Shown: positions 3,130-14,262, numbered from the stretch's first letter. The stretch: DNA of 64,000 nt from Bacteroidales bacterium (GCA_024400565.1 JAKSMQ010000005.1:651-64650), one strand, 5' to 3'. A program made the numbers and translations. Notes: generated by a model not told the origin, from the sequence alone.

Positions 3130-3411
3130 CTAATGCTCTATTGTCTGACCGAATTCTGACGTTGAATTCGTGTCATACAATTTCATCATATTGTAGAGTG
3201 AACGTTTGCTGTAGCCTCTGCGTTTAGGATTATGTCGCTTCAGGTAATCAGCCAATTCACTCACCACATAATCACCCCATTGAGTGTTCTTCAATCGGTC
3301 GGAGATGTAACTACCCACCTCCCCATACGTTTGTAATGTCTTAGCATTCACCTTGGCAATAGCAGTATTGGTGAGTGAGTTAACGTAAGCGAACTCTTGT
3401 TCGTGTTGCAC
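3130..3411 (-). pseudogene. DUF1016/YhcG-family N-terminal fragment (truncated PD-(D/E)xK nuclease-family gene remnant)
   Basis: The 93-aa ORF starts at GTG. The sequence (YGEVGSYISDRL...VSELADYLKRHNPKRRGYSKRSLYNMMKLYD) resembles only the N-terminal helical domain of YhcG-like proteins. The C-terminal nuclease domain is absent. Confidence 0.45.
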
Positions 3412-3500: not shown

Positions 3501-3962
3501 TTAGGGTAAATTTAGTGAAATATTTTCAAACGACATAGTCCAGTCTTGGCCATCAGTTTCATTAATGTCAGGCAGAAGGTAATCTTCTTTTTCGGGCAGC
3601 TCGGCCAATATAGCCTCGTCCGAAATCTGTAATTTCGCACGAATTCTCTTAAAAAAACTAATCTCGGAATATTCGATATTGTTATCCGCCTCTATTGTAT
3701 CAATGGCCAACTTGACAATTTGTAATTCTGCATGTTCAGAAAGTTGAGCAGCTGAAAGTTCTTTCAGGAATGAAGTTAGAAATTCATTTCCATCTCGTTG
3801 AATGTCTTCCACATATTCGCTAAGTTTGGACGAGATATCCAAGCCTTCAAATACAGCCTGATTTGTTGCAACACTCTTTACTAAGGCCAATTCCTCGTTG
3901 GCGATTTCGCCGTCGCATGCCATGCAGCAAAAGACGGTTTTCAAGAACAGTTCATTATTCAT
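3501..3962 (-). CDS. TerB-like (tellurite-resistance TerB fold) protein, last gene of the Hsp70 operon
   Basis: 153 aa. FCCMACDGEIANEELALVKSV plus a second half LAIDTIEADNNIEYSEISFFKRI fit the two-repeat TerB pattern (A-x-A/C-D-G-x-I-x-x-x-E). The ATG lies 5 nt after the stop of the kinase-AAA gene. Confidence 0.65.
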   Translation of the reverse strand: MNNELFLKTVFCCMACDGEIANEELALVKSVATNQAVFEGLDISSKLSEYVEDIQRDGNEFLTSFLKELSAAQLSEHAELQIVKLAIDTIEADNNIEYSEISFFKRIRAKLQISDEAILAELPEKEDYLLPDINETDGQDWTMSFENISLNLP

Positions 3963-3967
3963 AGTTG

Positions 3968-5746
3968 TTATCTTTTAAATCCAATTGGTTTGCGTTGAGT
4001 AATAGTTTGGTCGGTTTGTTCAATTTCGTTCCGAATAGACTCAAATTTCTTTAACTCTTCGAAAGGTATTGATGGCTTGTTTTTTGATATTGTCTGCAGT
4101 AGCAAGTCCATAGTTATCTTCTCGTCTTTTTCAAAAGCAATTCTAGCGGCCTCATCAACGATGAAATTCATATCGGCAGAGACATAGTTGTCCGTTTTCT
4201 CGGCCAACAAATCATAATCTATACCGAAATCTGTATATCGGTCCCTTAGTGCCAATTCAAAAAGAGCTTTACGTGCATTCTTGTCAGGAGGTCCGATATA
4301 GAACTTCTTTTCCAATCTACCGGAACCCAACATGGCCGGATCTATCATATTAGGATAATTGGTTGCCCCAATAACGAAAACCCCTTTCTCTCCAGTCCTG
4401 TCCATTTGTGCCAACATTTCATTCACAGCACTTTTTGACATTTCGTGGGAATCACTTGATCTATTGGGCAATAATTCATTTATTTCATCTATAAAGATTA
4501 TCGTTGGGGCATTCTCCTCGGCTTCTTTGAACATATTGGCTATGTTCTCTTGCGAAGCATTCACCCATTTACTTTTCAAATCAGCAGGGGTTTTCTGCAT
4601 GAAATTGAAGCCTACCTCCTCTGCCATCTTTTTAGCAAAGAAGGTCTTGCCACAACGTGGAGGACCATAGAGCAACATACCATTGGGCAAAGAAAGCCCG
4701 TAACGCTTCGACTTCTCTGGGTCCTTAATGATTCTGATAATATCCCTTGTTATCAAGTCTTTCAACTCCTGCATACCAGCCACATCAGCAAACCCATTTC
4801 CTTGAGGAATATTCACATTGCTACCTTTAGAAGATTCCTCCTTGTCAATTGGATGAGATGTTGCAATAGGTGACACTTTTATTTCACCCTTTAATGCCTT
4901 GGCAAATTCATCGGCAGACTGGAATCTGTCATCTGGATTATAGGCGAGTGCTTTGGCCATGATGTTTATCAGCTGTTCATCCAGTCCGGACTTTTCTCTG
5001 TCCAAGATTCGCAATGGTCGCTTTCGCTCATTATTGATAGTCTCTACCATAGCCAGCCTATCTCCTTTAAGTTTCGACAGATTGGTATAATATGGAGGTA
5101 GACCAAACAGTAGTTGATACAGCATAGCTCCAACAGAAAAGATGTCACTTTGTGGCGAAAACAAACCATTGAATGCTTCTGGTGCTTGGCAAAATAGGTC
5201 GAGACCATCTTTCTGAAACGAACGATGGTCTTGACTCATAAACCGGGCATAGCCAAAGTCAATGATGATTGGCTTGGCCATTCCTTTTGACATATCAAGC
5301 ATCACATTCTGCGTTGTCAGCTCATTATGAATAATTGGATTCGGCAAAGAATGAAGATACTTCAAACCGTCCAACACACCTAGCACAATTTGTTTGGCAT
5401 CAAACACAGTGCAGTCATTATCTCGTGTTGTTTTCTGCGCTGCGGTTTCGCCACTAATGAAGTCATACACCACATACAACATTCTTTTCCCATCTACCAA
5501 CATTTCACCACTATCTCGATAGTGAAGAACATTGGGATGATTCAGTTGCTCCGACACCTTCAACTCCAAACAATCACCATTCTCATCAAATTGTGTAGGA
5601 TGCAGTTTGTTGTAGGCAATCAACTTCAAGAAACAATTCTTGCCGCAAGGATCTTTAACGCGGTAAGTCTCAGCGTAAGTTCCTTGCTTTATTGGGAAGG
5701 CAACTGTGTATGAAGCAATCTCTTGATTCTTTTGTAGACTATACAT
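3968..5746 (-). CDS. Ser/Thr protein-kinase-like domain fused to a classic-clade AAA+ ATPase
   Basis: The N-terminal half has Hanks-kinase landmarks: FLKLIAY (Lys), IIHNELTTQNVML (catalytic loop, HNE in place of HRD), IIDFGYA (DFG), QAPEAF (APE) and SDIFSVGAMLYQLLFGLPPY. The C-terminal half has Walker A LLYGPPRCGKT, Walker B IIFIDEINEL, sensor-1 VIGATNYP and the second region of homology DPAMLGSGRLEKKFYIGPPD. Confidence 0.8.
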   Translation of the reverse strand: MYSLQKNQEIASYTVAFPIKQGTYAETYRVKDPCGKNCFLKLIAYNKLHPTQFDENGDCLELKVSEQLNHPNVLHYRDSGEMLVDGKRMLYVVYDFISGETAAQKTTRDNDCTVFDAKQIVLGVLDGLKYLHSLPNPIIHNELTTQNVMLDMSKGMAKPIIIDFGYARFMSQDHRSFQKDGLDLFCQAPEAFNGLFSPQSDIFSVGAMLYQLLFGLPPYYTNLSKLKGDRLAMVETINNERKRPLRILDREKSGLDEQLINIMAKALAYNPDDRFQSADEFAKALKGEIKVSPIATSHPIDKEESSKGSNVNIPQGNGFADVAGMQELKDLITRDIIRIIKDPEKSKRYGLSLPNGMLLYGPPRCGKTFFAKKMAEEVGFNFMQKTPADLKSKWVNASQENIANMFKEAEENAPTIIFIDEINELLPNRSSDSHEMSKSAVNEMLAQMDRTGEKGVFVIGATNYPNMIDPAMLGSGRLEKKFYIGPPDKNARKALFELALRDRYTDFGIDYDLLAEKTDNYVSADMNFIVDEAARIAFEKDEKITMDLLLQTISKNKPSIPFEELKKFESIRNEIEQTDQTITQRKPIGFKR

Positions 5747-5760
5747 AGCAGAGTGACAAA

Positions 5761-8304
5761 TTACAGGTAGTGAAACTTAGATTTTTGGATTTTCGTCTTT
5801 TCGTCTTCAGGTACATCTAGCAGGTCGATGACTCGTGCACACACCTGGCGGATAGATTCGGGGTCGGCATTATCATTGATCATCTGCTGAGCCTGATTGA
5901 GTAACTGTCTAGCCGTGGCAGCATCAGTCCATTTGTATCGACCAAAGTTATTATTATAGTGTTCTACAAAGGCAACTAGCTGATAAATAATTGTGACTTG
6001 GAAAAAGAGATGACCCATATCTCGCAGAACCTCTCTGCCCAATTTGGGATCTTTCTTTCGCACAGCCTCGTCAACTTGGCGGTGCATTTCGCGAACTTCA
6101 TTGTCGTATTCATTCCCCAAATCATTATTTGCAGTTTCCAGTCGCTCATATTCACTTCTGAGTTCGGCTTCTATCGATTCCCATTCGTGCATTTTCTCCA
6201 CCTCTTCCATTTTGCGGAAAGCTGTGCGAAGGTCTTTCATCAAATGGTCTTTGCCATCATCCTGTGATTTCTCACCTTCAAAACGACCAGAAACATCAGA
6301 TAGAATCTTTTCCACCTCCAATAGCTCGCTCTGCGGGATAGCCTTGCTGGATTTCAACGAACGCAATCTTCTATTAGCGTCCTGCATTCGCTGGGATAGA
6401 AGTTCTTCAGATACAGCCTGTTTGACGGAAATGGTCACTTCTTTCTCAACGGTTTCGCCACATGACACAAAGAACACCTCTAAATTGTAGTTCTGAGAGC
6501 TGTCCACCTTTAATGTCACATCAATATCGCTACCTTCTGGAATCAACATTGGCACATCATCGCCAGTAATCACAACATCATAGACATGATTGTTGTGGAT
6601 TGCGCTTGAGCCCTCAGCGCTATATTCGCCTTGATAGATGGGAATAACCATTCTATCCTGCTCCATACCAGGGCGTAAATTCTTGGGTACTTTCAATCCA
6701 TTACGGACACCTGTAGCTGGCAATTGCTGGTTTTTTTCCAAACCCTTCATCTGGACAAACACATCTCTATCTAAATCTGTATCACGAACCTCAATTCCAA
6801 TATGGTAAGGCAAGGTGGCATTGCCTACTTTCGTGCCTTGAATAATCGTTATTTCATTAGGAAAACACTGGATGGAATTACCTGTTCCGTCATATCCCTT
6901 TATAGCAAAAGCATTGGCTCTGCCTTCGTTAAGTCGACATTCTATAACATCGCCAATCTCATTCACCTCTACTTTGCCGCTGGACCAGCCCTTGTCGCTC
7001 CTTACCAGTTCTACAAATAGTTGCGACGGCATTGTGCCGACACACTCATTCGGCAATAGTTTTACTGTGACAAACTCCAAGGATTCCACACTATTGGCTT
7101 CATACTGGATATCAAGTGCCATAACCGAAGATATAGTATCAGTAGCACTAATAACTGGGCCTTCGGTATCAATACTCTGTGTAGCTGCAAATAATGCGGC
7201 GCCCTTGGCCACTGCCGTCATGGGGTCGATGCTGGTGTCCACGTTTGGCGTCACCTGGTCTTTCAGCATTTGGCGCAAAACAGGCGAGAAAGTCGGACCA
7301 CCAACTAGTATCAAACTATCCAACTTGCTGCCCGACAAATTGTTTCGCCTCAACAATTCAAGACACTTGTCAATTGCCTTCTGGAAGATAGGGGCTACAA
7401 CCTTGGCAATCTCCTCTTGCGAAATCACCATATCCAACTCGATAGCCTCACCCTCATCATCCTCGCCAAACTCGTCAATCTGAGACATGATATCGCATTG
7501 GGGTTTGAAGGAAAGCTGATTCTTGGCCTGCTCGGCATAATACTTCATGGCATCGCGCAAAATCTCACGTTTACGACTATCAGCCATTATATCATCTATG
7601 GTATAGTTGTCTTTCAAATAAGGAATGATTATCTGATCGACTATGGAATAGTCAAGGTTCTTGCCACCCAGATAGTTGTCGCCTTCAGTGTCAATCACCT
7701 TCATGATGCCATCTTCCACTTTCAATAGGGCTGCGTCGAAAGTACCGCCACCAAAGTCGAACACCATCCAATATCCGTCTTTCTTGTCTGTGCTCAAGCC
7801 GTATGCCATCGAAGCCGCAATGGGTTCTTGCAACAATTCGCAGTACTCAATACCCGCCATAGTAGCAGCACGTTTGGTGGCAGCAATCTGAGTGGCATCA
7901 AACATAGCAGGAATAGTAATAACAGCTGTATTGATGGTGTCGTCTGTAACAAACGACTTCAAAGTTTTAAGGACTTCTGAAGACAGGTCTTCTGACGAAT
8001 AGCTTCTGTCCATATTAGAACTATGGTATTGGGTGGCCAAACCCATAGTACGCTTAAACTCAATGAAAACATTTGTGGCCTCATTTGTCCATTTTTTTGT
8101 ACTTCGACTTCTGTCTGTTCTTAAGTCATTATATGCACCATCTCCGACTTTGACAATTTTCCTTTTTGAAAAGGAAACACAAGAGGGAAGAGTATCTTTT
8201 AAGGTGTCAGTTTTCTTAATAATGGGTTCTCCATTTTCCATCTTGCAGATGGCGGAATTGGTTGTACCCAAATCAATTCCGTATTTCATCTTTATTTGAG
8301 CCAT
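5761..8304 (-). CDS. divergent Hsp70/DnaK-family ATPase (847 aa) with extra inserted domain and long helical tail
   Basis: NBD motifs are GIDLGTTNS, VITIPAMF, LLQEPIAASMAYG, DFGGGTFD, DNYLGGKNLD, LILVGGPTFSPVLRQ and DPMTAVAKGAALFA. An SBD-beta-like segment follows (LPYHIGIEV...IPIYQGE...VVITGDDVP...IDVTLKVD), then about 220 aa of charged helical sequence. An alternative ATG lies at 8289. Confidence 0.85.
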   Translation of the reverse strand: MAQIKMKYGIDLGTTNSAICKMENGEPIIKKTDTLKDTLPSCVSFSKRKIVKVGDGAYNDLRTDRSRSTKKWTNEATNVFIEFKRTMGLATQYHSSNMDRSYSSEDLSSEVLKTLKSFVTDDTINTAVITIPAMFDATQIAATKRAATMAGIEYCELLQEPIAASMAYGLSTDKKDGYWMVFDFGGGTFDAALLKVEDGIMKVIDTEGDNYLGGKNLDYSIVDQIIIPYLKDNYTIDDIMADSRKREILRDAMKYYAEQAKNQLSFKPQCDIMSQIDEFGEDDEGEAIELDMVISQEEIAKVVAPIFQKAIDKCLELLRRNNLSGSKLDSLILVGGPTFSPVLRQMLKDQVTPNVDTSIDPMTAVAKGAALFAATQSIDTEGPVISATDTISSVMALDIQYEANSVESLEFVTVKLLPNECVGTMPSQLFVELVRSDKGWSSGKVEVNEIGDVIECRLNEGRANAFAIKGYDGTGNSIQCFPNEITIIQGTKVGNATLPYHIGIEVRDTDLDRDVFVQMKGLEKNQQLPATGVRNGLKVPKNLRPGMEQDRMVIPIYQGEYSAEGSSAIHNNHVYDVVITGDDVPMLIPEGSDIDVTLKVDSSQNYNLEVFFVSCGETVEKEVTISVKQAVSEELLSQRMQDANRRLRSLKSSKAIPQSELLEVEKILSDVSGRFEGEKSQDDGKDHLMKDLRTAFRKMEEVEKMHEWESIEAELRSEYERLETANNDLGNEYDNEVREMHRQVDEAVRKKDPKLGREVLRDMGHLFFQVTIIYQLVAFVEHYNNNFGRYKWTDAATARQLLNQAQQMINDNADPESIRQVCARVIDLLDVPEDEKTKIQKSKFHYL

Positions 8305-8316
8305 ATTGAGAAGTGT

Positions 8317-9174
8317 TTAGTTTTGACTTACTGTGATTTGCGCAGATTGGATCATTACTCCGTTATAATTAATCTGCGGTTTTGTGATACCTGTGATGAT
8401 TTGCTGACCCGGTTCCAAGTTCTCGTCTTCAACAAAATTAGCAACAACTTTCATTCCTTCATGATAAGGCTTTCCAAGCATATCAACAATCTCATATCCA
8501 TTGGCCAGCAGGTTACTTTTCATCTGATCAATTGATTTGGACAGTTGTTTATAACCTTTTACAGTTTTATCCATACGGTATAACGTGACTTCCATAAAAG
8601 CAATTCTGTCAGCAAGAGTCTTGATAAGGTCTGTCATGTCTTCAGACGACACATTACTTGAAGGAGCCGATGCTGCGGTGGCTATCTTCTGCAACTCTGA
8701 TAGTTCTGTATTCAGCTTTGTTACAACTTGTTCATTCAACTTATCGGCTTTCTCTTTGAGTTCGGTAATCTCATTTGTTCCATAGAGGATTCGTTTGCGC
8801 AAAACCACAAAGACTACAACAACCATAACCAATAGTGCCGCAATCAGAATAGCACCCAATATACTTTTGGATTTAATATTCTGTTCGTTGCTTGATACGG
8901 CAGTTTCAGTTGTTTTGATTTTCACACCTAAAGAATCAGCAATGACCTTTACATTGCTTGCATTCTTTTGAATGGCTTCATCTTGTTTGAGGTTAGCACT
9001 CAAAAGGTTGGCATTAGCGGAAGCAAGCGAATCATACTGTGTCTTCAAAGATTGCATTTGGAGCTCCAACGAGACCACCCTCTTATTCAACATAGATAAA
9101 CTATCTTGCTGAGCATAACTGATGAAAGTTATGGCAAGAAATAAGAATGGTAAAAATAATTTAATAAGTTTCAT
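8317..9174 (-). CDS. bitopic membrane protein with coiled coils and C-terminal GrpE-like domain
   Basis: The ATG at 9174 gives a signal-like N-terminus MKLIKLFLPFLFLAITFISYAQQ; the track start at 9222 is TTG. One internal TM is ILGAILIAALLVMVVVVFVVLRKR. The C-terminus NGYEIVDMLGKPYHEGMKVVANFVEDENLEPGQQIITGITKPQINYNGVMIQSAQITV follows the GrpE beta-domain pattern (compare E. coli [55 protein letters not shown]). Confidence 0.6.
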   Translation of the reverse strand: MKLIKLFLPFLFLAITFISYAQQDSLSMLNKRVVSLELQMQSLKTQYDSLASANANLLSANLKQDEAIQKNASNVKVIADSLGVKIKTTETAVSSNEQNIKSKSILGAILIAALLVMVVVVFVVLRKRILYGTNEITELKEKADKLNEQVVTKLNTELSELQKIATAASAPSSNVSSEDMTDLIKTLADRIAFMEVTLYRMDKTVKGYKQLSKSIDQMKSNLLANGYEIVDMLGKPYHEGMKVVANFVEDENLEPGQQIITGITKPQINYNGVMIQSAQITVSQN

Positions 9175-9184
9175 ATCGATTATT

Positions 9185-10669
9185 TTAATTACATGTTGCA
9201 ATACAAAATCCAATAATTCCAAATATTACATATATTATTATTTGAACAATACTGCCGCCATATTCGTCCCAAAAAACTCTGAAGCGACTTGTTGGAATAC
9301 CAATTTGACTACACAATTTTTTCAATGTTCTACGATTAGTATTGTATCTTTCTTTGAGGGCGGCATCCATGTCAAATTTGTCCATTAATAATGTGGCATC
9401 CCAGGCGTCTTTGAATGAGCGTCTTATAATAAATATCCTCATACTTCCCAAAGATGAATATTCCTTTTGTACCGCATTAATCTCCTCAATTACATTGTGT
9501 AATGCATTGTTCACCACCTTGGAAGACAAATTCAGATAGTAACTGTTAGTTACACCCAATTTCGCCTTCATTGCTTGCAGTTTCGGCTTGGTATTGTTTA
9601 ACAATGTAACTGAGTGCTCAATCTTGTCGGGTTTTTTACAAAAATCCTTTAACTCTTTGAATATGGCAATAGCTTCCTGCTCGACACCAGCAGGGGGCAG
9701 ATTTTTTTCTTTTTTGGCTAATGTTTCAACAGCCTGTTCGCAGCGGTCTTTGGTGATTTTTCCGACTGCTACTTTTGTGGCATACTCGGCCAGTTTCTTT
9801 GCGTTTAGTACATACTCTCTACTTTCATCACTATTATTGAAATAGTTAATGCTACATTGAAGAATCTGATTTGCCAACTTATCTGCCAATCGTTGATAAT
9901 CAACATCATTTGCACCGACCAACGCAATTAATCGAAGACGAATCCTATGAGTAGAATTACTTAACTCCTTGCCAGCCTCCTCCCATAATTTTGATTCATC
10001 ACCTTTGGTTGCTCTTGCCTTAGATATTGCATTCTCTATGATTTCGAACCGCTTCTGTATGGAATATTTTCGAATATTTTCTACCACCCAAAAATCAATA
10101 GAATTTCCGACATTTTGAAAAACATCGAATGCGTCTATCTCTTCAAAGACTTTGGAGAAGAATGTCTCTGCAAGTTCTTCTTTGGAGATTTGAATTGTAT
10201 CACCCGCAACAGCATTGACAAATCCAGTACGCATATCATCATTCTGAATCATCTTGCCCATGCAAGTTATTGCCGCAATATTCTCACCCGCAATAAACGC
10301 CAATACGCTTCGATTGACTAGTGCAGCGAATGTGTCTCGTTTGGAGAAAAGCTCTAAGGCTTTCTCCTCGTCACCCTTAACAAGATACTCCCATGCCATT
10401 GCTCCAACTGAATCTTCTGGTTTGATGAACCAAAACAAGGCATGAGTCAACTTGCCCTGAGGCAAGTTGATATTTGCTGTTGCTTGTCCAACCGACGCTG
10501 TATCTCGTTCTAACGAAGGCTGCCCACCAACACAATCAAGTGGGAAAGAAACGGTTTTGCTTGCTGCCAAATATGCCTTCAGCTTAGATTGATTGGCCGC
10601 AATTTCTTTGGCACTAGCGTTAGTGGGTACGCCTAATATTCTAAAAGGATTATTGCTAATAATATTCAT
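9185..10669 (-). CDS. tail-anchored J-domain-like protein (no HPD motif), first gene of the Hsp70 operon
   Basis: The N-terminus NPFRILGVPTNASAKEIAANQSKLKAYL matches J-domain helices I-II (YYxILGVxxxASxxEIKxAYRKLA), but the HPD position reads AAS. A long helical middle follows, then a C-terminal hydrophobic anchor IVQIIIYVIFGIIGFCIATCN. Confidence 0.55.
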   Translation of the reverse strand: MNIISNNPFRILGVPTNASAKEIAANQSKLKAYLAASKTVSFPLDCVGGQPSLERDTASVGQATANINLPQGKLTHALFWFIKPEDSVGAMAWEYLVKGDEEKALELFSKRDTFAALVNRSVLAFIAGENIAAITCMGKMIQNDDMRTGFVNAVAGDTIQISKEELAETFFSKVFEEIDAFDVFQNVGNSIDFWVVENIRKYSIQKRFEIIENAISKARATKGDESKLWEEAGKELSNSTHRIRLRLIALVGANDVDYQRLADKLANQILQCSINYFNNSDESREYVLNAKKLAEYATKVAVGKITKDRCEQAVETLAKKEKNLPPAGVEQEAIAIFKELKDFCKKPDKIEHSVTLLNNTKPKLQAMKAKLGVTNSYYLNLSSKVVNNALHNVIEEINAVQKEYSSLGSMRIFIIRRSFKDAWDATLLMDKFDMDAALKERYNTNRRTLKKLCSQIGIPTSRFRVFWDEYGGSIVQIIIYVIFGIIGFCIATCN

Positions 10670-10725: not shown

Positions 10726-10831
10726 CCCGAGGTCCTAGGATAACCTACACTACAAACAAGAAAGCCCACGGTATTACCGCGAGCGATTCTCCTTTCTTGT
10801 GTAGTGTACTTGAAATTTCCTAGGTTTCGGG
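10726..10831. repeat. long imperfect inverted repeat (about 106-nt nested hairpin) in the leader of the Hsp70 operon
   Basis: The outer arms CCCGA..TCCTAGGA (10726-10740) pair with TCCTAGG..TCGGG (10818-10831). The inner arms TACACTAC-AA-ACAAGAAAG (10746-10764) pair with CTTTCTTGT-GTAGTGTA (10792-10808). The 27-nt loop contains a small CGG/CCG stem. Confidence 0.6.
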
Positions 10832-11082: not shown

Positions 11083-11739
11083 TTATATTACAATCCCGTT
11101 CTCCTTGAGTATTTGCTCGAGATGCTCTATGCGGTCGCGCAAGGCTGCATTCTCGTTTCGAAGCATTTCTATCTGTTGTTTCTGGTTGCTACGATAGCCC
11201 AGTCTGGCCGCTGTCATCCTTTCGCGTATGCCTCCCTCTTCTACAAATTTCCGTTCTAGCTGTTCCTGGTAGGAGGTCATCAGCTTGTCGGTGATATGGC
11301 AGAGGGTAAGCGCCACATTGGCCATCTCCACATCGTCCCACACTTCGAAGTATTGTTCATAGTCCTCCACCTTGTTGTGGACGCGGCAATATTCGAGCAT
11401 AGAACGATAGCGAGGATGCCCCTCGGTCCAAACGGGCAGCTGCCGAGCACCAAGGTAGTCCTGGTAGTCTTCGCGCAGTTCCTTGAGACTTCCGCGGGCA
11501 CAATTGAGCAGTTTTACCTCCATCTCCATACTGGTCACACCATCGGCAGCCCCCTCTACAATATTTTGCTTGCCCGATCGAGCCGCTTGCACCATCTGGT
11601 CAACAGTTCGGTCGCCCTTGCGAAGGAATCGCTCGGTGAACCGATAGGTGAGCATATACAGCGTGTTGGCCTTCTGGTAGAAGTACAGTTCTTCCCAGTG
11701 GGTCTGCTTGCGCAAGAAGGTGGGGTGAGGCGTTGGCAT
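11083..11739 (-). CDS. four-helix-bundle protein (23S rRNA intervening-sequence protein / Avd-like family) with C-terminal coiled-coil extension
   Basis: LYFYQKANTLYMLTYRFTERF...QMVQAARSGKQNIVEGAA is typical of the four-helix-bundle family common in Bacteroidota. A leucine-zipper-like tail QIEMLRNENAALRDRIEHLEQILKE follows. ATG start. Confidence 0.7.
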   Translation of the reverse strand: MPTPHPTFLRKQTHWEELYFYQKANTLYMLTYRFTERFLRKGDRTVDQMVQAARSGKQNIVEGAADGVTSMEMEVKLLNCARGSLKELREDYQDYLGARQLPVWTEGHPRYRSMLEYCRVHNKVEDYEQYFEVWDDVEMANVALTLCHITDKLMTSYQEQLERKFVEEGGIRERMTAARLGYRSNQKQQIEMLRNENAALRDRIEHLEQILKENGIVI

Positions 11740-11768: not shown

Positions 11769-11925
11769 GGGGGGGGATTTTCTAGGGGGGGGGGGCTAGG
11801 ATTTTCTAGGGATTCCTAGGATTTCTAGGGTTTCTAGGGATTCCTAGGGTGGGGGACTATGGGGATGGAATTTCTTGGGGGCTTGGGATTTTGGGATTCT
11901 TGTATTCTTGTGTTCTACCTTGGTT
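11769..11925. repeat. degenerate ~10-bp tandem repeat (ATTYCTAGGG) with G8 and G11 homopolymer tracts
   Basis: CTAGG occurs at 11782, 11796, 11806, 11816, 11825, 11834 and 11844 (spacings 14, 10, 10, 9, 9, 10). G8 is at 11769-11776 and G11 at 11785-11795. The array decays into TTCTTGGGG / TTTTGGGA / TTCTTGT variants up to about 11925. T8/T6/T8 tracts at 11742-11766 precede it. Confidence 0.8.
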
Positions 11926-12027
11926 ATTTTCTTTTTTGTTGTCTCTTGTTGGCATGTGTTTGGTCTATTGATAGCTATAACGTCAAAAGAACCATTTTAT
12001 TATTCTACGTTGGATATATATGAAAAG

Positions 12028-12049
12028 CCCCAGGAGGTATTCCCTGGGG
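12028..12049 (-). terminator. hairpin terminator downstream of the 506-aa gene
   Basis: CCCCAGG (12028-12034) pairs with CCTGGGG (12043-12049). On the minus strand the stem is followed by CTTTTCA. It lies about 40 nt after the stop at 12090. Confidence 0.45.
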
Positions 12050-12089
12050 TTTCAATCTTTCTGGGGCTTCATTTTTCCTCTATGCGAGG

Positions 12090-13610
12090 TTATGCAATGC
12101 ATTTAACCTTGCTGAAGGTGGTTACGATTTGCTCAATCTCCACGGGAATGCTTGTACCCTTGTGGCCCTGGGTGATGGCATCGTAGTATTTTTTCTGGTC
12201 GGCTTTCTTGCATTGAAAGATCTCATAGTGAGAGAGCTCGTCCCTTATCCCGGACTGACGGCAGGTCAGTATCTGAACAGCCTCGGATGAGAGATAGCCC
12301 GCCAGCACCAGAAGAGGACGGATGTTGACCTGAATGCCTTGCACCGAGACGCAGATATGTCGGCTGCCCGGATGGAAAACGCTATCCCATAATTTCGAGC
12401 TTTGTCGGGTTGTAATCTGCGTGCCGGCAAGGAGACGGGAAACGACTTCATTGACCTTCCAGATGGCCAGACTGTCATCGCCACACAGATGGATCATGGC
12501 CTCTTTGAAAACAGCAGTGATTTGCTGCTTGACAGCTGTGTGCTGGCTTTCGCTCAGGGCGAAGAGAGGCTGGTATTCGAAACCTTGAAAAGTGTGGTGG
12601 GAGTTGTAATACTCCAGGAGACGCTCTTTGATGATGTAATTGAAAAATGGTTGAATATCATACTTGATACCCGTTTCATCATCATTTGAAGCGAAACAGC
12701 TCCTGACTAACGATACCGCCAATTCGTCACCGGGAAGTCCATCCTCGTCGATGGTTCGGAAATATTCCTTTCCCGAAGGTGTGGCGCTAAAGGCGTGGTA
12801 TATCTGCGCGTGGACGCGTTGCAGCATATCGGTTGCGAACTTGAACTCCTCCATTGAGACACGCAGCTCGCGTTTGATACCCTCGACACTCGACTCATAA
12901 TAGTCCAAATAAGTTTTGTTGAGTGCACGTTTGCATGCGCCCGAATCATTGATGGTTTCCTTTAACTTTCCCAACGATCGCTGCAGCTTCTGCTTGTAGT
13001 CGGTTAATTTTTCGACCAGGAAGGGCAGGAGCGTGCATTCCTCCTTAAAGATGTAGTGGAATGCTTCGTCGAGCAGATCTTTAATCCTGACAGAAATATC
13101 AAGTTTGGAGAATTTCTCTTTCATGTTCTGAAAGATGCCCCGCACAATATTGTAATAGACATCGAAAGTATCGGAATTGAGTCGGTGGGCCTTCTTGATG
13201 CTACTGATATCAGAGAGCCCGTGTTCATCGCAGAATTTATCTATATCGTTCAGGAAGGAGGGTATCTGATTCAACAGATTTGCACCTTCCTGATTCAATT
13301 TTTCAAGATGTCCATTGACAAGCGTCAGAGCCTCATCCGCTGCCTGATCTGTCTCCCGTGTAAGAGATAAAAGCATCTCGCCAATAGGGTCGGGCTTAAA
13401 CTCGTTTAACTTGACGCTGAATGACTCTCTTGAAATCTCACAGCAGGAATGCGAGATTCCAGGATCGATCTCGAAAAGATTGAGCCAGATTGCCGGGCTG
13501 AAGCCGGAAAGGCTGCCTTTGTAAAATTTTTCTTCAGACTCTTCCTGAATCGGAAGGTTCATTACCTCGTAAATGTGCTCTATCACACTATATTCCAAAT
13601 GATTGATCAT
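12090..13610 (-). CDS. hypothetical protein (506 aa, predicted all-helical, no recognised family)
   Basis: Long uninterrupted ORF. The track start at 13646 is TTG and lies inside the predicted promoter. The ATG at 13610 (MINHLEYSVIEHIYEV) sits about 20 nt downstream of the predicted TSS. Confidence 0.6.
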   Translation of the reverse strand: MINHLEYSVIEHIYEVMNLPIQEESEEKFYKGSLSGFSPAIWLNLFEIDPGISHSCCEISRESFSVKLNEFKPDPIGEMLLSLTRETDQAADEALTLVNGHLEKLNQEGANLLNQIPSFLNDIDKFCDEHGLSDISSIKKAHRLNSDTFDVYYNIVRGIFQNMKEKFSKLDISVRIKDLLDEAFHYIFKEECTLLPFLVEKLTDYKQKLQRSLGKLKETINDSGACKRALNKTYLDYYESSVEGIKRELRVSMEEFKFATDMLQRVHAQIYHAFSATPSGKEYFRTIDEDGLPGDELAVSLVRSCFASNDDETGIKYDIQPFFNYIIKERLLEYYNSHHTFQGFEYQPLFALSESQHTAVKQQITAVFKEAMIHLCGDDSLAIWKVNEVVSRLLAGTQITTRQSSKLWDSVFHPGSRHICVSVQGIQVNIRPLLVLAGYLSSEAVQILTCRQSGIRDELSHYEIFQCKKADQKKYYDAITQGHKGTSIPVEIEQIVTTFSKVKCIA

Positions 13611-13635
13611 AATATAAATTGTTAAAAATTTGGTG

Positions 13636-13643
13636 CAAAGATA
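13636..13643 (-). promoter_or_regulatory. candidate -7 box (TATCTTTG) for the 506-aa gene
   Basis: The reverse complement of CAAAGATA is TATCTTTG, matching TAnnTTTG. It lies 26-33 nt upstream of the ATG at 13610. Confidence 0.5.
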
Positions 13644-13833
13644 CAAGTAAATTATGATAATGCAAGCATATTTATTGAAATTGTCAATAACTATTAGTAG
13701 AATTGTAAGAAATGAGTGTGCTTGAACGGATTTATATATCGGACAGTCAGTATGTTAGATTGCATATTGAAATGTTGTTCGGACCACGATGGCTTAATTT
13801 CTATGCCGACGTGGCGATGTGGGACGAAATTAT

Positions 13834-14107: not shown

Positions 14108-14262
14108 GACTACAAAAGTGGCTGTTTTGACTACAAAAGTACTACAAAAACACTACAAAAACACTACAGAATCTCTACAAAAACACTATTTCGACTCTGA
14201 ATCGACTCTACAATATCTCTACAAAATCACTATATCGTCTCTACAATGTCTCTACAAAACCA
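14108..14262 (+). repeat. array of CTACAA(A/T) motifs in strict 11-bp register (phased A-tracts)
   Basis: CTACA starts at 14110, 14131, 14142, 14153, 14164, 14175, 14208, 14219, 14241 and 14252. From 14131 to 14252 every spacing is a multiple of 11. TCGACTCT is also duplicated 11 nt apart (14191, 14202). Confidence 0.85.

Follow-up and report, generated by a model that had tools for sequence, protein, structure and literature searches.

Here, we describe a protein in which a kinase fold is joined to an AAA+ motor. The gene lies in a stretch of 64,000 nucleotides from a Bacteroidales bacterium (GCA_024400565.1 JAKSMQ010000005.1:651-64650), called the window in the following, at positions 3968..5746 on the minus strand. 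It is an open reading frame (ORF) of 592 amino acids with an ATG start and represents the fourth gene of a cassette, which also encodes an Hsp70, a TerB-like protein and two membrane-anchored proteins. The fusion is a genuine Hanks-type kinase fold joined to a classical-clade AAA+ ATPase with a single AAA module, and the cassette is an undescribed candidate system. Within the protein, the kinase fold takes the position of the substrate- or adaptor-recognition N-domain of Cdc48, FtsH and katanin, and it is connected to the AAA module via a flexible linker. With a probability of roughly 55%, the kinase fold serves mainly as a docking or regulatory head of the AAA+ motor within the Hsp70 cassette.

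Architecture of the kinase-AAA+ fusion

The kinase fold comprises residues 12-290 (4877..5713; all features of the fusion lie on the minus strand). K41, E61, N147, the DFG and APE motifs and R274 are present and the glycine-rich loop is degenerate. Residues 20-276 match the Pfam family Pkinase (PF00069) with an E-value of 7.9e-29 and 101.3 bits against a cutoff of 31.7. The translation contains the motifs CFLKLIAY (K41), IIIDFGYA (D163) and CQAPEAF (E190) as well as KQGTYAETY in the glycine-rich loop. The catalytic loop (5306..5329; PIIHNELTTQNVML) reads H140-N-E142-L-T144-T-Q-N147, such that HNE..T..N replaces HRD..K..N. A preliminary description, made from the sequence of the window, had proposed a fusion of an N-terminal Hanks kinase fold and an AAA+ domain with an HNE loop at this site; this is borne out, and all motifs quoted there are found in the translation.

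The linker between both halves (residues 291-317, 4796..4876) displays a predicted local distance difference test (pLDDT) value below 50 at residues 299-308. It is followed by the AAA+ module with its lid (residues 318-560, 4067..4795), whose nearest relatives are the D2 domains of Cdc48, VAT and p97. Here, residues 357-485 match the Pfam family AAA (PF00004; E-value 8.3e-36), and AAA_lid_3 scores exactly at its cutoff. In NCBIfam, the AAA half matches CDC48 (1.7e-51) and FtsH (3.7e-46), and the PDB profile match to VAT/Cdc48/p97 D2 has a domain E-value of ~1e-43 over ~250 aligned residues. According to these matches in NCBIfam and the PDB, the C-terminal half belongs to the classical AAA clade, beside Cdc48/VAT/p97 D2, FtsH and PAN.

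The AlphaFold2 model of the fusion, which was built on 62 family members, has a mean pLDDT of 91.8 and consists of two well-folded halves with a disordered tether at residues 299-308. Across residues 1-290 the pLDDT is above 90, and a bilobal kinase fold is seen. The top Foldseek matches in the PDB are p97, NVL and Cdc48; this search returned AAA proteins only and no solved structure with a kinase plus AAA architecture. In public databases, the fusion is named 'AAA family ATPase' or 'transitional endoplasmic reticulum ATPase'.

The AAA+ module had been described as apparently fully competent. This holds for Walker A, which follows GxxxxGK[ST] in the form GPPRCGKT (residues 361-368, 4643..4666), for Walker B, which follows hhhhDE in the form IIFIDE (D420, E421), for the sensor-1 Asn463 within GATNYP and for Arg477 within LGSGRLEKK. 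It does not hold for an atypical Arg364 in Walker A, for the second region of homology (SRH), where the first conserved arginine is replaced by Gly474 and one of the two arginines, Arg477, is kept (DPAMLG474SGR477LE; 4316..4360 together with sensor 1), and for pore loop 1, which lacks the canonical glycine. The latter reads W394-V-N396 (4559..4567) when aligned to KWVG and KYYG of VAT and Cdc48.

To place these deviations, a family sample of 144 non-redundant kinase-AAA fusions was used; these were taken from genomes and from 50%-identity representatives, which were searched exhaustively with HMMER. The family consensus has Walker A as GPPGCGKT, Walker B with DE, the sensor-1 Asn and an SRH with two arginines. 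In pore loop 1 the family keeps the aromatic and hydrophobic residues and has His or Asn for Gly ([YWF]-[IV]-[HN]). Gly is found at position 364 in 139/144 members and Arg at position 474 in 138/144. The combination of GPPRCGKT with LGSGR, thus Arg364 with Gly474, is shared by the window protein and the four clusters closest to it. Furthermore, the pairing of Arg364 with loss of Arg474 recurs in distant lineages, namely in the Saprospiraceae Asp-type member L058, in P0168 (Lys474), in P0238 (Ala474) and in P0418, a member of the clade with dead kinase folds described below. Every member with an Arg in Walker A lacks the first SRH arginine, in at least 4-5 separate lineages, and 169 members with Gly364 all carry Arg474. 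Position 364 corresponds to Gly13 of Ras when both are read in the GxxxxGK[ST] frame; side chains at this site obstruct the arginine finger acting in trans. The P-loop arginine in cis may replace or cancel the trans arginine finger of the motor.

Conservation of the kinase fold and of its catalytic residues

Two samples were compared for the kinase half, the 144 family members and a close clade consisting of the 120 closest database clusters (56-100% identity), 119 of which were aligned. Changes are given as minimum counts on a neighbour-joining tree of the 144 taxa. Within the close clade, HNE[LI]T..N is present in 120/120 clusters and HNE in 119/119 of those aligned. Only 45 of 279 kinase columns (16%) are invariant in the 119 sequences, and this set includes K41, E61, H140, N141, E142, T144, N147, D163 and G165. 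Since the pocket including Glu142 is invariant while so few columns are, the nucleotide pocket is under purifying selection in this clade. The glycine-rich loop KQGTYAETY of the window protein has a single Gly at a position that is G62/S55 in the close clade, and does not follow GxGxxG.

Throughout the family, position 142 is the most labile key site of the kinase half (E69, D45, N10, G8, A5, S4, Q2, T1), for which the tree requires at least 33 changes. The DFG aspartate D163 changed 19 times and the Mg-binding N147 15 times, and K41 and E61 are kept in 132/144 and 134/144 members. E190 of the APE motif, D201 and R274 changed once each and are conserved in 143/144. At position 144, where the window protein has Thr in place of the catalytic-loop Lys, T110, N13 and S9 are found among the 144 members. 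This exchange is the ancestral state of the family and not peculiar to the gene in the window.

The preliminary description had asked whether HNE is conserved or lineage-specific, and had named random drift across the kinase motifs of homologues as a sign of a decayed domain. HNE is both fixed in the window clade and lineage-specific within the wider family, and it is not drift. The lability of position 142 was indeed found family-wide; random drift was not, since the C-lobe residues E190, D201 and R274 are conserved in nearly every member. The mean pairwise identity within the family is 0.40 for the kinase half and 0.56 for the AAA module, and none of the more than 300 family members examined has a shortened kinase domain. 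Taken family-wide, the kinase fold is under purifying selection, but its catalytic residues are not.

The losses in the pocket are concerted. With an acid (D or E) at position 142, K41, E61, N147 and D163 are all intact in 106/114 members (68/69 for Glu, 38/45 for Asp), and without an acid the same residues are intact in 5/30. Glu-type members therefore keep the rest of the pocket as well as Asp-type members do. Furthermore, at least eight switches between Asp and Glu occurred at this position in the family. Since Glu and Asp interchange without loss of the pocket, HNE is probably a tolerated carboxylate variant and not a new catalytic device.

A sizeable clade, called the dead clade here, reads D-Q...H-N-G...S/T...G-F-E, and the beta-3 Lys, the alpha-C Glu, the catalytic Asp, the Asn and the DFG Asp are lost. 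Its AAA module is intact (Walker A and B, sensor 1 and both arginines), and the C-lobe residues E190, D201 and R274 are retained. This clade resides within the same cassette in Daejeonella, in Chloracidobacterium (Acidobacteriota) and on one metagenome contig. Since the motor and the cassette are kept, phosphotransfer is dispensable for the core role of the family. The dead clade within the same cassette is the strongest evidence that the function of the cassette needs no phosphotransfer.

For the window protein itself the picture is less clear-cut. It lacks the HRD Asp, which is replaced by Glu, and is thus a pseudokinase in the formal sense that at least one of the beta-3 Lys, the HRD Asp and the DFG Asp is missing. 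This exchange is conservative, and the formal status does not demonstrate inactivity. The preliminary description had left the choice between an atypical kinase and a pseudokinase scaffold; catalysis is dispensable for the shared role of the family, as the dead clade shows, and the window protein, by its sequence, could be either.

The Hsp70 cassette and its genomic setting

All genes of the cassette are encoded on the minus strand in the order tail-anchored helical protein, bitopic coiled-coil protein, Hsp70, kinase-AAA fusion and TerB-like protein, with intergenic gaps of 5-14 nucleotides in the window. Gene 1 (9185..10669) encodes a helical, TPR-like protein of 494 amino acids with an N-terminal 'NPYRILGV' motif and a C-terminal transmembrane (TM) anchor. 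Gene 2 (8317..9222, listed as an ORF of 301 amino acids with a TTG start) encodes the bitopic coiled-coil membrane protein, in which an N-terminal signal or TM segment is followed by an outer coiled coil, a TM segment, a cytoplasmic helix-helix region and a small, highly conserved beta domain. Its true start is probably at ~9174, where Met17 is nearly invariant in homologues; this start removes the overlap with the stop of the preceding gene at 9185.

The Hsp70 (5761..8304, 847 amino acids, Pfam HSP70 E-value 1.2e-65) ends 14 nucleotides upstream of the start of the fusion. Residues 8-431 match DnaK (2v7y) over the whole nucleotide-binding domain, the interdomain linker and the start of the beta part of the substrate-binding domain. 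The catalytic Lys and Glu and the DxGGGTFD motif are intact, and ~400 amino acids of a divergent C-terminal region follow; the protein is classed as an atypical Hsp70. The last gene (3501..3962) starts 5 nucleotides past the stop of the fusion and encodes the TerB-like protein of 153 amino acids with two D-G/N-x-I-x-x-x-E motifs (CDGEIANEE and ADNNIEYSE). It matches Pfam TerB with an E-value of 0.0026, which is below the cutoff, 2h5n in the PDB with 0.0014, TerB 2ou3 with 0.13 and phrog_632 'tellurite resistance' with 1.8e-5, and an orthologue has a weak precomputed TerB match. The support for the TerB assignment is consistent and sub-threshold.

A co-chaperone among the membrane-anchored proteins was considered as well. 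A J domain in gene 1, based on the likeness of 'NPYRILGV..KE' to helix I, is not supported: Pfam gave no DnaJ match, the J-domain matches in the PDB have E-values of only 0.15-1.5 and cover helix I, and hhalign against J-domain sequences gave a probability of 13% over 24 columns. HPD is absent in gene 1, where FPLD, FPND or DFSF is read after helix II. The C-terminal beta domain of gene 2 resembles the GrpE C-terminus by eye only; no PDB profile matched, Foldseek returned nothing below an E-value of 0.5, and the pLDDT of the beta domain in the AlphaFold2 model is 51-65. The co-chaperones of the cassette, if there are such, are not recognisable as members of known families.

The distribution of the cassette was surveyed with one genome per GTDB species; 80 loci were fetched and 86 loci were compared. 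The fusion is carried by at least 595 species genomes with confirmed loci and represents a large, widespread family without a name, contrary to the earlier view that such a fusion is unusual. Conservation of the cassette extends across Bacteroidota, and it occurs a few times beyond this phylum. Full-length queries matched thousands of protein clusters, a number that is unfiltered for the fusion architecture and includes generic AAA+ proteins. The fetched loci stem from Bacteroidales, Flavobacteriales, Chitinophagales, Saprospirales, Cytophagales and Sphingobacteriia, with a few Firmicutes, Chloroflexota and Bdellovibrio contigs of metagenome-assembled genomes. Bacteroides, Prevotella and Muribaculaceae are among the gut groups with the cassette.

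The partners are found in the same order for the Hsp70 in 83 of the 86 loci, for the coiled-coil protein in 75, for gene 1 in 73 and for the TerB-like protein in 72. Most missing partners coincide with contig ends near the cassette, and the TerB-like gene, occasionally another one, was also undetected in some full-length loci. The Hsp70 is located directly upstream of the fusion in the 83 loci, across many Bacteroidota orders. This extends the adjacency noted earlier for the window and supports a functional coupling of both proteins. The hand-over of clients from the Hsp70 to the fusion, which had been suggested at the same time, remains an inference.

Between the Hsp70 and the fusion, the genes abut or overlap in ~40% of the loci, and ~55% carry one to three unrelated small genes, often with TM segments or lipoprotein-like N-termini (for example L001 7183-7988, L004 7075-8001, L021 and L072). 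This gap is a hot spot of gene insertion and resembles a variable cargo or effector slot; in the window it is empty (5747-5760).

Further variants of the cassette were observed. In L001, L002 and L008 (9773-13777), a Sel1-repeat protein is inserted between the fusion and the TerB-like protein, and a gene for a Peptidase_M48 of 685 amino acids (HtpX/Ste24-type) is appended, which hints at a link to membrane proteolysis. On the metagenome contig L091, the Hsp70 is split into 266 and 583 amino acids (6513-9069) and the TerB-like protein into 91 and 79 amino acids (11786-12251), whereas both are intact in the otherwise near-identical L090; either the copy on L091 is apparently decaying or the assembly is at fault. 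Three loci contain an additional paralogue of gene 1 with 'NPYRILGV' just upstream of the cassette (for example L017 3029-4567). In the Chloracidobacterium locus L093 (935-5409), an FGE-sulfatase domain is part of the gene-1 homologue, the coiled-coil gene is preceded by a Peptidase_S13 gene, and the TerB-like gene was not detected; here, the neighbours are a UvrD-type helicase and a DEAD/YjiV helicase of 2106 amino acids.

The cassette is mobile as a whole and is found at unrelated genomic sites. Across the loci, 242 flanking ORFs fall into 216 clusters, and the flanks contain relaxases, tyrosine integrases, primase/excisionase sets and insertion sequence elements. Directly beside the cassette, Gabija was found in one or more loci (GajA 1.7e-289, GajB 2.8e-232), an AbiP2-type defence reverse transcriptase (1.6e-154) in some genomes, and the PADLOC candidate families PDC-S01, S02, S05 and S23 in individual loci; AbiD is also present among the flanks. 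A phage origin of the cassette was rejected, since among 2.9 million IMG/VR contigs just 5 carry it.

In the window, the cassette lies in a trough of GC content (0.34-0.47 versus 0.54-0.60) from ~2.95 to 11.0 kb, with a radical-SAM gene on one side and the housekeeping genes QueG, RlmL, NadC and CinA on the other. An imperfect direct repeat of 26 nucleotides brackets the cassette (2907-2932 and 10762-10787; 21/26 identical, exact core of 11 nucleotides AAGCCCACGGT). The radical-SAM gene has one copy at its 3' end, and the other one lies just upstream of gene 1. The repeat could be an insertion scar or a product of chance, and its size is within chance expectation. No tRNA was found at the border of the island in the window.

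Several other features surround the cassette. An ORF of 93 amino acids (3130..3411, minus strand) matches only the N-terminal part of DUF1016/YhcG (E-value 8e-13) and is a truncated PD-(D/E)xK nuclease of the PDC-S02 type in PADLOC, of which a full-length copy is present near the cassette in Daejeonella (L092). A region of mixed GC content separates the cassette from the housekeeping genes and contains the gene for a four-helix-bundle protein of the 23S_rRNA_IVP family with a C-terminal coiled coil (11083-11739, minus strand) and an ORF of 518 amino acids without a match in Pfam, PADLOC or PHROG (12090-13646, minus strand). At 14120-14262, ~13 tandem copies of an 11-nucleotide unit (CTACAAAAACA and variants) lie in an AT-rich intergenic region (GC 0.34) and have an iteron-like look. 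The region 1-2900 has a high GC content (0.54-0.58) and encodes an ORF of 361 amino acids without a Pfam match, followed by the radical-SAM protein of 593 amino acids; over 1-1400 the GC skew is unusually strongly negative (-0.25 to -0.29).

Relation to known systems and proposed function

The fusion shares with Cdc48/p97/VAT (D2) and FtsH the Walker A and B motifs, the sensor-1 Asn, the SRH and AAA_lid_3, as well as the general plan, in which the AAA ring comes after a variable recognition domain at the N-terminus. In contrast to these proteins, it has a single AAA module instead of two, no protease domain and a kinase-fold N-domain. Additionally, pore loop 1 of the fusion family lacks the Gly, and the window protein has an Arg in the P-loop and has lost the first Arg of the SRH.

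The kinase half was compared to the Hanks kinases of defence systems (PD-T4-6, mad6 of MADS, PglW of BREX and Stk2), which have the same order of subdomains, the APE motif and the subdomain XI Arg. Residues ~8-300 gave the best defence profiles with mad6 (8e-33) and PD-T4-6 (8e-32) in PADLOC and NCBIfam. However, the fusion scores far below the cutoffs (94.6 versus 460 bits for MADS6), HNE..T..N is present instead of HRD..K..N, and neither an AAA+ fusion nor an Hsp70 operon is part of these systems. A similar situation was found for IetA of IetAS. The AAA half matches its profiles (E-value 1.9e-28; NCBIfam IteA 2.2e-24), but the score is 86.3 versus a cutoff of 510 bits, the cassette contains no IetS-type serine protease and IetA lacks a kinase fold. 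Membership in PD-T4-6, MADS, Mokosh, IetAS or Bud32 was rejected, as all of these are domain-level matches far under the curated cutoffs.

Like the bi-chaperone disaggregases DnaK-ClpB and Hsp70-Hsp104, the cassette pairs an Hsp70 with an AAA+ motor, a logic that the preliminary description had proposed. ClpB, however, belongs to the HCLR clade and has two AAA rings and a coiled-coil M-domain for docking to DnaK, whereas the fusion belongs to the classical clade and has one AAA module without a coiled-coil insertion. Furthermore, the pairing in the cassette is hard-wired in one mobile operon with membrane anchors. Another parallel is DjlA from E. coli, a co-chaperone of DnaK, in which a TerB-like domain and a J domain are combined with a membrane anchor (PMC11709261). 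The cassette likewise joins a TerB-like protein, membrane-anchored partners and an Hsp70, and since DjlA combines a TerB-like with a J domain, a connection of TerB and Hsp70 has a precedent. Here, in contrast, the TerB-like protein is separate and soluble, and no HPD-bearing J domain was demonstrated in the cassette.

Divergent Hsp70 proteins have been described in predicted immune operons, such as CnuD in CoCoNuT (PMC11090510) and the Hsp70 of the DO-GTPase/tubulin/Hsp70 systems (PMC7159879). These systems consist of McrB-like or other GTPases, nucleases and tubulins and lack a kinase-AAA fusion, a TerB-like protein and membrane components of the kind found in the cassette. Their Hsp70s often have degenerate ATPase motifs, in contrast to the intact motifs of the cassette Hsp70. 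The cassette or its non-enzymatic members were not found in PADLOC 2023, NCBIfam 2026 or libraries of solved structures, and full-text searches of the literature gave no description of the cassette, although the 2012 paper on Ter systems (PMC4104200) may hold an earlier mention.

Mechanistically, the kinase fold would sit on the AAA+ ring in a non-catalytic role and would bind a partner or client via its conserved C-lobe. Asp- and Glu-type heads, including that of the window protein, probably also bind ATP, either as an allosteric or as a slowly turned-over ligand. The Hsp70 module, tethered at the membrane by the two anchored proteins, would supply or license the client, and the AAA+ ring together with this module would remodel or extract it at the inner membrane. 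The small membrane-protein genes of the variable slot are candidates for clients, sensors or effectors.

Several observations weigh against the docking head or against the defence role discussed below. The ATPase competence of the window protein is uncertain due to the altered AAA site (R364/G474). No known Hsp70-docking element, including a ClpB-like M-domain, was found in the fusion, and the identities of genes 1 and 2 as J-domain and GrpE co-chaperones are not supported. The non-catalytic proteins of the cassette are absent from PADLOC 2023, and only a handful of PADLOC matches were obtained for the 150 nearest flanking ORFs of 42 loci. Therefore, the association with defence genes is anecdotal, limited to individual loci and suggestive. 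Finally, the pocket is invariant throughout in the window clade, Glu142 included, which would fit a real, if atypical, enzyme equally well.

Such an enzyme would be an active atypical Ser/Thr (or dual) kinase with Glu142 as the base and Thr144 in place of the Lys, which phosphorylates itself, the Hsp70 or a client as an essential step in this clade. Overall this seems unlikely. The following speaks in its favour: K41, E61, N147, DFG and E142 are invariant where only 16% of the kinase columns are, the full pocket is at least as well kept in Glu-type as in Asp-type members, the D-to-E change is chemically conservative, and the closest profiles of the defence library, PD-T4-6 and mad6 (E-value ~1e-32), belong to active kinases. 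Thr at the position of the catalytic-loop Lys occurs in active atypical Bud32-type kinases, and the NCBIfam Bud32 matches of the fusion are weak. On the contrary, no key site of the family is as labile as the position of the catalytic base, the cassette persists in whole clades whose site is dead, and the only Gly of the glycine-rich loop is not conserved. Furthermore, the longer side chain of Glu would be expected to misplace the base, and no cognate phosphatase is encoded in the cassette. An active kinase would not exclude a docking role. A decaying, functionless remnant on a working AAA+ ATPase, as the degenerate glycine-rich loop, the non-canonical catalytic loop and the loss of catalytic residues in some relatives could suggest, is effectively refuted by the Pkinase match (8e-29), the pLDDT above 90, the full length in all of the more than 300 members and the conservation of E190, D201 and R274 even in the dead clade.

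For the docking head as part of the cassette, two roles have to be considered, defence and membrane proteostasis, and either one is inferred. A role in conflict or anti-phage defence is ranked first, with a confidence just short of even. Tentatively, the cassette could instead be a mobile module for membrane protein quality control and stress tolerance without an immune function, in which the Hsp70 and the AAA+ motor extract damaged inner-membrane proteins and refold or dispose of them, similar in logic to the transmissible heat-resistance and protein-quality-control islands with ClpG/ClpK and FtsH-like genes. This would fit the proteostasis-type parts (an Hsp70 with intact ATPase residues and linker, a Cdc48/FtsH-like AAA module), the two membrane-anchored components, the TerB-like protein, which recalls the envelope-stress co-chaperone DjlA, the variant with Sel1-repeat and Peptidase_M48 genes and the fact that most immediate neighbours are not defence genes. 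It fits less well with the patchy distribution and heterogeneous insertion sites, with integrase-bearing elements that carry the cassette together with Fic/RhuM cargo, with Gabija, the AbiP2 reverse transcriptase and AbiD beside it in some genomes and with a hypervariable slot inside the operon, which is more typical of conflict systems. The most far-reaching version of the defence role, doubtful as a whole, is a horizontally mobile, membrane-tethered, Hsp70-based immune system of Bacteroidota. Here, the kinase fold would be a 'receptor head' recognising a phage-derived or phage-perturbed client delivered by the Hsp70, and the AAA+ ring would unfold or extract the membrane effector of the variable slot. 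The pocket, at first a catalyst, would have become a nucleotide-gated switch and, in some lineages, a dead scaffold, and the trans arginine finger would have been exchanged for the cis P-loop arginine in several.

The labels currently used in public databases hide both the kinase fold and the operon. Asp-type, Glu-type and dead folds in a constant context offer an unusually clean setting to study which role a pseudokinase takes after the loss of catalysis, and the recurrent exchange of P-loop and SRH arginines suggests how ATP hydrolysis in an AAA+ ring can be rewired. Research usually treats Hsp70 and AAA+ motors as housekeeping chaperones; here, both are hard-wired in a mobile accessory operon, together with a kinase fold, a TerB-like protein and two membrane proteins, in hundreds of Bacteroidota species. 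Should the cassette act in defence or stress, the known repertoire of this important gut phylum would gain a mechanism driven by chaperones.

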